Part shown: piece after piece, positions 11,828-15,500 of the stretch | How positions within the stretch are numbered: position 1 is the first letter of the stretch | Layout of the letters: every line of letters begins with the position of its first letter | Assembly (NCBI GenBank): GCA_951406725.2 | Contig: OX597817.1 | Coordinates: 112,034,001 to 112,098,000, forward strand | Source of the DNA: Octopus vulgaris | Taxonomy: Eukaryota | DNA length: 64,000 nucleotides | Direction: 5' to 3' | The notes under the pieces: model-generated | The model's database searches: none | Told to the model about the DNA's origin: nothing | What the model saw: the letters and a program-made list of their open reading frames with translations, nothing else | Made by a program: the position numbers and the translations under genes

Positions 11828-14800
11828 CTAGTTTGTGAATCCACCTCTGATACGTGGCACTTGATCAACAAGGGAGTTCGATGCTGCTGCCCGCATCCGT
11901 GTCTCCTGTCGTGAGGTAGGTTCATCTGGGACTCCCAACAAGAAGAGATCCAGTTTAGTTTTAAAGAAACCCACATCCACACCATGTAAGTCTCTCAGGC
12001 ATTTAGGGAGGATGTTGAAAAGCTGTGGTCCTCTGAAACCCAAGCTGTTGCAGTATCTGGACCTGTATTTTGATGGTGATGTTGGAATCCTTGGCACCAC
12101 GCAGCGGCGCCCCGTTCTGCGGTTGGAGTAACTTTGAATGCCAAAGTTTGGGACAAGACCCTCCAGGATTTTCCAGATGTATATTACTGCATATCTCTCC
12201 CGCCTCCGCTCCAGGGAGAAGAGGTTTAATACCTTCAGTCTTTCCCAGTAGCTGACATTTTGCATTGAGACGATTTTCTTTGTGTAGCTTCTCTGAGTTG
12301 CTTCGAGTTCTGCTGTTTGTTTTATATTGTGTGGTGACCAAAGTTGGGAGCAGTAGTCCAAGCGGCTGAGGACAAATGTTTTCCATAGGACCATCAGTGT
12401 CTCCTTCTCTCTTGTTCTGAAAGTTCGGAGAATCCATCCAGCTAGCCGTCTGCATTTTATCACCAGATTAGCAATATGCATTTGGAAAGATGCATCATTG
12501 CTCATGTCAATGCCCAGGTCACGCACTGATTTTGACTCAGGGATTGCAATTCTTCCTGGGCCAGTGTATCCAGTCTTCACGTCATTTACCTTTGTGTGCC
12601 AGTAGCGCAGGGCCTGGAACTTACCTGCATTAAACTGCATGTTGTTGTCCTCAGCCCACCTGTATATTGTGTCCAGCTCATGTTGCAGATGCGCAATATT
12701 TTCAGGGTTCTGTATTGCGTGGGAGACCTTTGTGTCATCTGCATAGCTAGCAAGGGTGGTCATCGTAGCAACTGAAGGCATGTCTGAAAGGGCCACTATG
12801 AACATCAGTGGCCCCAAGACAGTGCCCTGTGGGACACCGCTTGTTATTTGCGTTTCCCTGGAGGTGGCTCCATTGCTCACAACTGCCTGTTTTCTGTCTT
12901 TTAGGAAGTTGTGCAGCCACTCTCCAAGTTTCCCGCCTATGCCGAGACCACGCAGTTTGTGACAGATCATACCATGGTCGACTTTATCAAAGGCTTTTGC
13001 AAAGTCAAGATATATTACATCCACATTTGAGCCATTTAGTAGCTGTTTCAACACCCAGTCATAGTGTTGCAGGAGCTGTGTTAGGCAGCCTCTACCTGGT
13101 CGAAATCCATGCTGGGTGTCAGACAGTAAGTCATTTTCTTCAAGGAACATGATTAGTTTCTTACGGACTATTCGTTCCATGACTTTGCTGATGTGTGAGG
13201 TCAGAGAGATAGGCCTATAATTTTTAGCATCTGCTCTGCTACCTCCCTTATGGATAGGGCATATTACCCCCTCTTTCAGTTTGACTGGGAGCTTACCACT
13301 TGCAAGAAAGCTCTGAAAAAGAAGCTGTAGCGGTTTTGCAAGGGCTCGTTTGCACGATTTGAGAAGGATCGCTGGGAATCCATCAGGTCCAGCAGCTGAG
13401 TTTGTGTCAATCTCATCAATGGCTAGTGTGATATCATCTTCTTCGATGTTGATGTACTCAATTTTTGTCTCTTTGGCCGCTGGTAAAGTGGCAAAGAATT
13501 CTTCTGGGTTGTTTACTTGCCTGTGTCCTAGAGGTGTAGTGAATACACTTTGGAACTGTTCGTTCAGTATTTCACTTATCCTCGTGGGATTTCCTGTGAG
13601 AGAGCCATCTTTTTGGAAGAGAGGTCCTATTCTCTGGTGCACTGTGGCTGTCTCTTTGGCAAACTTAAAGAAAGCTTTAGGGTTTGATTTTATATTTTCT
13701 ATTACCCAAGCTTCTTTATCTGCTCTCTCCTTTTCATGGGACTGATGTAGACTTTTCTCAGTTTCCATTAGCATTCTTTCGAGCCGAGACTTCTCACCAC
13801 TTTTGGTGTGCTTGCTCAGGCGGTTTGCAATCCTTGTCCGTCGTCTCATAAGAATCCTCCTTTCTCTAGGGATCCTGTTTTTATTCTTGTGTGTGCTGGC
13901 CCTGCACATTGGGACATATTTGTCACATATGGCTTGTATTATGGACATGAAGTGTTTGTGTTTCATGTTTATGTCCGGTGTGGAGAGACATTCAGGCCAA
14001 TCCTGTTTGAGGATCTCTTTCTCAATCGACTTCCAGTTGGCTTTATGAAAGTTTAAGTTGGAGAGATGGTGGGTGCTTCGTATAGGCTGTGTGTCTGCGG
14101 GGGCTTTTGTTCCATACGTAGACAGCTCTATTATGTTGTGATCCGAGATCATTGTCGGCATCACATTAACATTATGGATAATATCCATATTGTTTGTAAA
14201 GCAGAGATCCAGTATATTATCTGCCCTTGTTGGTTGCAGAACTATTTGCTCCATGAAAGAGGTATTTGTGAGATGGAGCAGGGACTCCACCTGTGCCTGC
14301 TGATGGTGTGTCATCCCTGGGAGCATCTGCCCCCAGGCCATTCCACATTGGGGAGGTTAAAGTCACCCATGAAGAATACACTGTTGTGCTGTTCAAGGTT
14401 GGTGAGGACTTCTCCTATTTTTGTTAGGCAGTCTTCAAACATGCCTGAGTGTTTTGGGGCGTCTGGTGGGCGATATGTAGTGCATATGACGATATTCAGT
14501 TGTCTTATGTGTACAATTTGAGTTTCACATACTGAGTTTGAATATGACAGCAGGACCTGGGGCGTGAGGTCATCTCGGATGTACATTGCAACTCCACCAT
14601 GGCTCCTCCCTTTTCTATCTGTGCGTATGACTGCATATTGCGGCATGTGTATTTCTGCATCACCTATATCGGGTTCAAGATGCGTTTCTGTGAGTGCCAT
14701 GCATATAGCTTGATTGCATGTCACAAGGTCTCTCAGGAATGAAATTTTCTTTTTACAGTTTCCGCGCAGCAGCCCTCCTACATTCAGTAGAAATATTTTT

Positions 14801-14838
14801 GTGGTGTGTGTGTTGGTGTTGGTGTCTGTGGTGGCCAT
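11828..14838 (-). CDS. LINE-A ORF2: AP endonuclease + reverse transcriptase (one frameshift at the C5 run 14330-14334)
   Basis: EN motifs LLNVGGL, ALTETHL, YRPP, GDFNLP, LDLCF, SDHN. RT motifs [46 protein letters not shown]. ORFs 14311-14931 and 11828-14341 join if one G is added. Confidence 0.9.
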
Positions 14839-15500
14839 CCTGCATCTGTTGGAGGTGGCCTTATGTGGTGGTAGTTCCAGCTTTGTGCTTGTAGCCAGGT
14901 CAGCTGCTGAACAATTTTTTGTGCCATGCACAAAAAAGACTGCTGTTCAGCTGCCGCCCTTCTCACATCTGGGTGAAGCTGGCCACCTGTTGGGTTTCCG
15001 CGCACCACATCTGCATACCGTCTTTCAGTAGTGGTCAGTGCGCTTTTTTCCCTTCTTTTAACTTTTTGTTTTTGTTCTCCCTGAGGGAGGGACCTCTGTC
15101 TCGCGTCCGTGCGGTTTTGGTAGGGCCTCCGATGTGCAAAGTGACAGTTTGCACCTTCAACGCCGTACCAGCAGTCCCCCTCAGGTAGAATTTGCAGGTG
15201 TTTCTTTCCCTGCCCTTACAGTTTTTGCTGGGGTCCCTCTGCTTTCTCTGGACAGGGCTTCCTTTAGCCTTGATTCTGTCACCCTTTACCTCCTGCTTCC
15301 CATCAATTCCAGGGTGCCTTTCCTTTCTTGCGGCCATCGCACCTCTTTGGTCTTCAGTTGTGGTGTTGGAAGCTGGACATGTGTCATCGTTTCCCTGTGT
15401 TCCAGGCTTCTCCATTTGGCTCTGGATGCTTTCCTCATCCTTTTGGCCCTCCCTGCTGCCGTCACCTCCCAGGATGATGTCCAGGGTGTCCACATGTTGC
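14784..15500 (-). CDS. LINE-A ORF1 (partial), CCCH zinc-finger protein (one frameshift at the C5 run 15176-15180)
   Basis: Adding one G gives ...[30 protein letters not shown]...[10 protein letters not shown]...PQKYFY*. This contains C-x7-C-x8-C-x3-H and joins ORFs 15035-15502 and 14784-15008. Confidence 0.7.

Follow-up and report, generated by a model that had tools for sequence, protein, structure and literature searches.

How is the second open reading frame (ORF2) of a long interspersed nuclear element (LINE) translated? The question is a long-standing one (PMC3894237; PMC5009743; published work is cited here and below from excerpts of the articles), and it is raised by a locus of Octopus vulgaris at which ORF2 lies in the -1 frame relative to ORF1 and begins inside it. 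The locus belongs to a stretch of 64,000 nucleotides, hereafter the window (NCBI GenBank assembly GCA_951406725.2, contig OX597817.1, positions 112,034,001 to 112,098,000 of the forward strand), which carries on its minus strand, within (AT)n arrays, two 5'-truncated LINE copies, LINE-A (15500-11746) and LINE-B (19703-16580). A U_UUU_UUG heptamer in LINE-A ORF1 had been put forward, from the letters of the window, as a -1 ribosomal frameshift site yielding a fusion of ORF1 with the endonuclease (EN) and reverse transcriptase (RT) of ORF2. Comparative evidence supports this original prediction: slippery heptamers occur at the homologous junction in a sister family, D, and in 12/12 distant elements (8 of them strict), long -1 overlaps start at the heptamer, and many lineages have no ORF2 AUG. 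We regard the feature as real and, judging from sequence comparison, as a novel form of a known -1 frameshift mechanism. With considerable confidence we propose that the LINE clade with a CCCH-finger ORF1 produces an ORF1-EN-RT fusion by -1 frameshifting, and the U_UUU_UUG lineage of the window copy probably still uses the site as its main route.

The ORF1/ORF2 junction of LINE-A

14784 to 15500, minus strand: LINE-A ORF1, 5'-truncated (full length 298 amino acids in copy L026)
15132 to 15196, minus strand: ORF1 CCCH zinc finger (weak Pfam matches, below cut-off)
14947 to 14949, minus strand: TGA that closes the -1 frame of ORF2, three codons 5' of the heptamer and present in the majority states of the subfamilies
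14897 to 14960, minus strand: extended RNA hairpin with an inner 10-bp stem at 14915-14937; its 5' arm includes the heptamer
14931 to 14937, minus strand: slippery heptamer U_UUU_UUG, predicted -1 shift site, ORF1 codons Ser-Phe-Leu
14784 to 14930, minus strand: ORF1/ORF2 overlap, with the ORF1 tail in frame 0 and an open -1 frame running into the endonuclease
14836 to 14838, minus strand: in-frame ORF2 ATG, context AGG ATG G, made by ORF1 Gly-Trp codons
14784 to 14786, minus strand: ORF1 stop TGA, within ORF2 Leu-Asn codons
11828 to 14838, minus strand: LINE-A ORF2, APE-type endonuclease and reverse transcriptase, 1,003 amino acids

Every coordinate given in the original prediction proved correct. 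TTTTTTG at 14937-14931 is read by ORF1 as TCT TTT TTG, in X_XXY_YYZ register; the -1 frame is closed by the TGA at 14949-14947, three codons before the heptamer, and is then open for 31 codons to the ATG at 14838; ORF1 ends with the TGA at 14786-14784. The predicted transframe peptide requires a small correction, as the canonical product would read QQSFL-VHGTK and the QQSFF-VHGTK proposed earlier is the alternative product. In LINE-A alone, the stop-free overlap is not beyond chance (P=0.71 given the ORF1 peptide), and ORF1 contains three further in-register XXXYYY heptamers besides 14937-14931.

Two features of LINE-B bear on the start of ORF2:

16580 to 19703, minus strand: LINE-B, intact ORF2; the 5' truncation point lies just 3' of its own heptamer
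19669-19667, 19633-19631 and 19623-19621, minus strand: LINE-B GTG, ATG and ORF1 stop, respectively

The GTG that had been described as the LINE-B counterpart of the LINE-A start codon does occupy the corresponding position, but an in-frame ATG at 19633-19631 (M-L-L-L-N) had been overlooked, and longer LINE-B copies hold a second in-frame ATG upstream. Both A and B thus possess an ATG, a finding that had been named in advance as one that would refute frameshifting and that keeps AUG initiation as a rival explanation for the lineage of the window copy. The distance from the ORF2 AUG to the ORF1 stop is 52 nucleotides (nt) in A, is at most 30 nt only in subfamilies B1 and B2 (10 nt), and does not apply to family D, which has none; termination-reinitiation of the SART1, calicivirus or pneumovirus type would call for an AUG that overlaps the ORF1 stop or lies within ~30 nt of it, and the AUG of A does neither.

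Distant relatives conserve the slippery site beyond protein needs

A profile search of 1.84 billion proteins retrieved related ORF1s with the same helix, starting [S/A/N/D]-F-L, and the heptamer site aligns across the octopus and distant ORF1s. Seventeen metagenome loci were chosen by the zinc-finger DNA pattern only, blind to the junction, and 12 distinct ones were kept; L277 was excluded for insufficient length, L279, L284 and L285 as near-duplicates, and L273 because it has no counterpart of the helix. Against synonymous recoding with the protein held fixed and each element's own codon usage, the strict heptamer U_UUU_UUA occupies the homologous site in 8/12 elements versus 0.99 expected (P=3e-8), so that the signal is conserved in this set beyond what the protein needs. 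The remaining four, whose codons cannot give U_UUU_UUA, carry G_GAU_UUU (3) or G_GUU_UUU (1) one codon earlier. G_GAU_UUU is documented in pea enation mosaic virus (PMC5009743), and GGA and GGU are tolerated XXX triplets (PMC3542737).

The reading frames point the same way. From the heptamer to the endonuclease, the -1 frame is unbroken in 11/12 distant elements (64-153 codons), with a joint log10 P=-20 for a count that ends at the first Met or the ORF1 stop. Upstream of the heptamer it is closed (3-14 stops per 74-126 codons). Of the 10 homologous elements for which a -1 frame was listed, nine have it opening 0-11 codons ahead of the heptamer, and L272 has it opening 48 codons ahead. No Met lies between the heptamer and the endonuclease Asn in 7/11 distant elements. 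An open -1 frame is found in 11/11 octopus subfamilies, in D and in 11/12 distant elements; only among the distant elements does it reach significance.

The octopus families fall among the metagenome relatives in an endonuclease tree, whose deeper nodes are weak and in which D groups with A/B/C (support 0.99). Scanning metagenomes with the endonuclease alignment gave no match, the zinc-finger pattern scan of genome contigs gave 0 matches, and the viral-contig scan returned four giant-virus CCCH proteins, which are not LINEs. The excluded L273 (1226-1900) is a LINE in which the end of ORF1 and the start of the endonuclease differ; its ORF2, too, lies in the -1 frame, which is free of stops over 130 codons and has A_AAA_AAC 13 codons into that open stretch.

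A sister family replaces the heptamer and dispenses with the AUG

Family D, a young family of the same genome that was found by protein search, has many open 1066- and 1090-codon frames. Thirty loci were fetched and 25 counted, two being not D and three truncated below the site. At the homologous position D reads Arg-Asn-Phe-Val: Phe-Leu has become Phe-Val and U_UUU_UUG is gone, and A_AAU_UUU stands in register one codon earlier in 22/25 copies (P=0.07 by recoding). In the -1 frame, 63 codons free of stops extend as far as the ORF1 stop (P=0.09). No Met precedes the first endonuclease Asn in 24/25 copies, and the exception carries a 1-nt deletion. The asparagine of the Zorro3 endonuclease is essential in that LINE (N17A; PMC1965478), and family D's first endonuclease Asn is presumably the equivalent of Zorro3 N17. 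An interim conclusion drawn from the 11 close subfamilies, that every lineage keeps an AUG, was overturned by family D.

Close subfamilies are ambiguous by themselves

Eleven subfamilies (A1-3, B1-4, C1-3 and G) were defined by manual assignment of 178 locus entries, among which a few copies occur twice; copies that were truncated or could not be placed were excluded. As the original prediction had anticipated, the heptamer is kept: U_UUU_UUR is the majority state in 11/11 subfamilies, with Z=G in eight and Z=A in three, and genome-wide pattern matches number 1163 for TTT TTR versus 1 for CTN and 2 for TTC, the copies not being independent. No A/B/C/G lineage changed its U-run, and TTG and TTA alternated three times. 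The expected stop-free overlap was likewise found, the -1 frame being open back to the heptamer in 11/11 subfamilies, but this is expected given the ORF1 peptide (P=0.56-0.88 to the first ATG).

The start codons are labile. The site of ATG 14838 switches with GTG between lineages, GTG being found in B1, B2, B4, G and D, and in subfamily G the sole in-frame ATG is the one formed by TTA TGC. The A/B/C/G evidence, taken by itself, is ambiguous.

A hairpin holds the heptamer and is not a 3' stimulator

The original prediction had placed the heptamer inside a hairpin, and its description was accurate: a 10-bp stem (14937-14928/14924-14915) encloses an ATG loop and is extended by outer arms GCTGAACA/TGTTCAGC. 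In LINE-A the structure exceeds chance (z=-2.9, 1/200 shuffles; z=-4.8 versus synonymous recoding), and a stem-loop of ~65 nt is far more stable than synonymous recodings in 8/11 subfamilies (z -3.2 to -5.4). An interim reading of the hairpin as not conserved was overturned by these subfamily tests. It is weak in C1, C2 and G, and absent in family D. By comparison, the junction reached z below -3 in all three lineages tested, and 0/66 windows of ORF2 did so.

Across the 22-codon hairpin block, 9/9 synonymous pyrimidine sites are invariant versus 16/38 in ORF2 (Poisson P=1e-4), and purine sites change at twice the background rate, mostly A/G opposite U. Covariation is not demonstrated, since there is no pair in which both sides change, and the consensus fold omits the breaking positions. 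The changes in the block (14897-14960) are almost exclusively A/G across subfamilies, consistent with toggling between U-A and U-G pairs; more speculatively, A-to-I editing prior to reverse transcription may have left them as an imprint.

The hairpin is therefore real, but it contains the heptamer. Because the heptamer lies within the 5' arm, the stem would be melted when the ribosome decodes the site, so that it could act at most as a lineage-specific modulator. Its geometry, its absence in D and its weakness in C1, C2 and G rule it out as a 3' stimulator. A second hairpin that is stable against synonymous recoding occurs in the endonuclease coding region (14168-14194, minus strand; z of -5.2 in A, -4.7 in B and a weaker -2.2 in C).

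Proposed mechanism and alternative explanations

We propose that the heptamer at 14937-14931 is an inherited -1 frameshift site at which a minor share of the ribosomes would move back by one base through tandem tRNA slippage (Phe/Leu in the window copy). Slipped ribosomes would make an ORF1-endonuclease-RT fusion of ~1,280 amino acids (250 ORF1 residues, 31 overlap codons and the 1,003-residue ORF2) instead of the 298-residue ORF1 protein. The efficiency is expected to be low because Z is G and no local 3' stimulator was found, and a low yield would suffice since little ORF2 protein is needed, in line with the view that few ORF2 molecules are required (PMC3894237). The register is kept, the type of heptamer tracks the protein, the overlap starts at the heptamer and the AUG is dispensable, as tandem tRNA slippage predicts; neither AUG initiation nor polymerase slippage predicts this pattern. 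For the clade as a whole, we are inclined to favor a scenario in which a widespread animal group of CCCH-ORF1 LINEs makes EN-RT only as an ORF1 fusion, through retrovirus-like -1 frameshifting on a conserved heptamer at a helix start and without a local stimulatory structure, and in which the hairpin of octopus A/B captured a weakened U_UUU_UUG and may tune the rate.

Several observations weigh against frameshifting at this site. The window heptamer has Z=G, which is outside the eukaryotic consensus and is shared by 8/11 A/B/C/G subfamilies; Z is A, C or U in A3, C2, G, D and 12/12 distant elements. No stimulatory structure was detected 5-9 nt downstream of the heptamer in LINE-A (z=-0.38; pseudoknots are outside the folding) or in 10/11 subfamilies, G having reached -2.5, and downstream structure has z below -2 in only 3/11 distant relatives; L281 and L282 have a stem-loop 7 nt downstream of the heptamer, and most distant relatives are without one. 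A search for pairing between the site and the 3' tip found no conserved complement of at least 8 bp among the 10 elements with both ends, of 19 examined (one A3 copy has an 8-bp match). The relaxed XXX set (G_GAU_UUU, G_GUU_UUU) was picked after the data had been seen, the -1 frame of L278 is not continuous in spite of its heptamer, and three family D copies are without A_AAU_UUU. Among the close relatives, not one of the 11 A/B/C/G subfamilies is without an in-frame ATG; these codons occupy four sites, 10-151 nt ahead of the ORF1 stop, and B3 has lost two of them and gained one. The three synonymous U positions are marginal alone within A/B/C/G (P about 0.05-0.1), and the invariance of the U-run in A/B could be due to stem pairing, so that these relatives are unable to decide the matter.

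The start codons give the most serious alternative, which we nevertheless consider doubtful: the clade ancestrally frameshifts, and in A/B/C, where Z is G and the hairpin strong, the site has weakened and translation of ORF2 now begins mainly at an AUG of its own, situated 10-94 nt ahead of the ORF1 stop, through either termination-reinitiation or hairpin-aided internal entry. In every one of the eight Z=G subfamilies an AUG is indeed found at one or more of sites 2-4, in most cases flanked by a purine at -3 and a G at +4; most of these subfamilies also have the hairpin, and they may thus have moved partly to AUG initiation. The ATG gained in B3 appears compensatory. Such AUGs arise passively from ORF1 NNA-TGG codons, however, the corresponding codon is GTG in D and in most G copies, and the -1 frame is open beyond the AUG to the heptamer in 11/11 subfamilies, though this has P=0.56-0.88 in each. 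SART1 (PMC5972666) and Zorro3 (PMC1965478) depend on the ORF2 AUG, and upstream structure helps reinitiation in pneumoviruses (PMC5972666; PMC3542737), where the reported distance is ~29 nt (PMC3542737), versus 46-151 nt for the AUGs of most subfamilies. The hairpin, finally, is under RNA-level constraint, with its invariant pyrimidines and its purines toggling between A and G opposite U, but without double-sided compensatory change.

It seems very unlikely that x-Phe-Leu is a protein helix start only, with the heptamers a coincidence of codon usage and ORF2 initiated at any codon in the manner of L1. Ser, Asp or Asn preceding a hydrophobic pair is a typical helix N-cap, and D has a GTG in strong context. 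Initiation of L1 ORF2 is described as AUG-independent (PMC5009743; PMC1965478). Recoding with the protein fixed still gives P=3e-8 for the strict heptamers and log10 P=-20 for the overlaps, though, and a heptamer is found one codon earlier in motifs that have a CTN codon for Leu and in those that read F-V or V-F-Q. Equally improbable in our view is slippage of the polymerase or reverse transcriptase, which would add one U to the run and join ORF1 and ORF2 in a single frame in a minority of RNAs. Instability of the run is seen in genomic B1 copies (T6 in 18, T5 in 8 and T4 in 2 of 29), but the variants are mostly deletions, like those of G-runs, a T7 allele occurs in 1/22 B4 copies, and no U-run indel is listed in public contigs, which drop rare variants. 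A_AAU_UUU, G_GAU_UUU and G_GUU_UUU, moreover, keep the register for tRNA slippage with only four or five U.

Relation to known recoding systems and LINEs

The eukaryotic -1 consensus has Z=A/C/U and a stimulator 5-9 nt downstream (PMC3542737), and the window copy departs from both, with Z=G and no stimulator at the usual spacing. U_UUU_UUG is a predicted site in West Nile virus (PMC3574045), and U_UUU_UUA and G_GAU_UUU are named as frameshift sites (PMC5009743). The junction resembles that of retroviral and long terminal repeat (LTR) gag-pol (HIV-1 U_UUU_UUA) and of pea enation mosaic virus (G_GAU_UUU) in having an in-register X_XXY_YYZ near the end of an RNA-binding ORF, a downstream polymerase ORF in the -1 frame and a predicted fusion protein. 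It differs from gag-pol in that the element is a non-LTR one with an APE endonuclease and no protease in ORF2, Z is G in the window copy, the clade has no conserved 3' stem-loop or pseudoknot at 5-9 nt (pseudoknots being outside the folding), and the overlap spans 50-150 codons.

A published parallel in mechanism is offered by the Dictyostelium elements TRE5-A and TRE3-A, whose APE-RT ORF2 is stated to need a -1 frameshift (PMC5911963); these are amoebal, target tRNA genes and have a different ORF1. Described routes to a LINE ORF2 are SART1 coupling, unconventional initiation in L1 and 2A skipping (PMC5972666; PMC5009743), and +1 shifting or reinitiation has been suggested for Paramecium LINEs (PMC5405496). 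SART1 coupling and mammalian L1 reinitiation share with the present elements a bicistronic LINE RNA and low-level ORF2 (PMC5972666; PMC3894237), but here there is no UAAUG stop-start and no spacer, and the ORF2 frame begins 140-460 nt inside ORF1, at the heptamer. The reviewed LINE cases comprise reinitiation, coupling and 2A skipping, frameshifting being treated as a trait of LTR elements and viruses (PMC3894237; PMC5009743). The described Octopus LINE is a single-ORF RTE element (PMC9115989). The excerpts of PMC4120745, PMC11203168 and PMC13343379 hold no passage on frameshifting or CCCH fingers, and that of PMC4120745 none on Myb either. No slippery-site frameshift in CR1-group or CCCH-ORF1 LINEs was found in a literature search that left subscription journals and Repbase Reports outside.

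A defined 7-nt site, together with natural lineages that have no AUG or have exchanged the heptamer, makes the translation of ORF2 directly testable. If the proposal is true, these young and very abundant elements make their functional ORF2 protein as a Gag-Pol-like fusion that includes an RNA-binding domain; cis preference would then have a simple basis, and annotations that start ORF2 at the first Met would be truncated.

The LINE families of the window

The A and B families presumably belong to the CR1 group (CR1/Zenon/L2/Crack/Daphne), a label taken from their motifs. They resemble that group in having APE and RT without an RNase H match, short 3' tandem repeats and 5' truncation, and differ from it in an ORF1 with Myb-like and CCCH matches, both weak, instead of an esterase. 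In full-length LINE-A ORF1 (298 amino acids), every one of the Myb/SANT-like and CCCH matches is below the Pfam cut-off. The domain search of ORF2 returned EN and RT matches only, with no protease. An ORF2 with APE endonuclease and RT, 5' truncation, a tandem-repeat tail and dispersed copies together characterize these elements as APE-type LINEs. Both families are young and high-copy, the best 40 of ~1,900 candidate matches each being 99-100% identical.

Homologs of ORF1 were limited to five proteins, all Octopus-labelled (77-83% identity), and a search of the ESM Atlas gave no usable match. Three octopus proteins, P0006, P0007 and P0008, annotated as lipin, an adhesion GPCR model and a hypothetical protein, include pieces of LINE ORF1, which reflects either exonisation or gene-model artefacts.

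Relative to other copies, LINE-A of the window is one G short in ORF1 (run 15176-15180) and one G short in ORF2 (run 14330-14334); the ORF1 G is present in public contigs in 4/4 runs. Single-base deletions are common in G- and T-runs of the assembly (these two runs; the B1 loci L032-L060). The public contigs hold the longer G-run; the deletions may stem from assembly error or RT slippage.

The 3' ends share a common design:

11746 to 11810, minus strand: LINE-A 3' end, where a motif that B and D also have precedes three 8-bp tail repeats and (AT)n

Immediately ahead of their 3' ends, A, B and D carry a common 20-nt motif (window 11746-11810 and 16580-16640; L288-L305), and the tandem tails that follow it are family-specific, with an 8-mer in A, a 4-mer in B and an 8-mer in D. 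Copies sit in (AT)n arrays, which suggests microsatellite targeting. Directly upstream of an A copy, L020:1-880 is the 3' end of another, more distant LINE family, and its terminal motif differs from that of A. Elsewhere in the window, a 62-bp unit is repeated 3.4 times at 2341-2552, and an interstitial (TTAGGG)5.7 array lies at 42840-42873.

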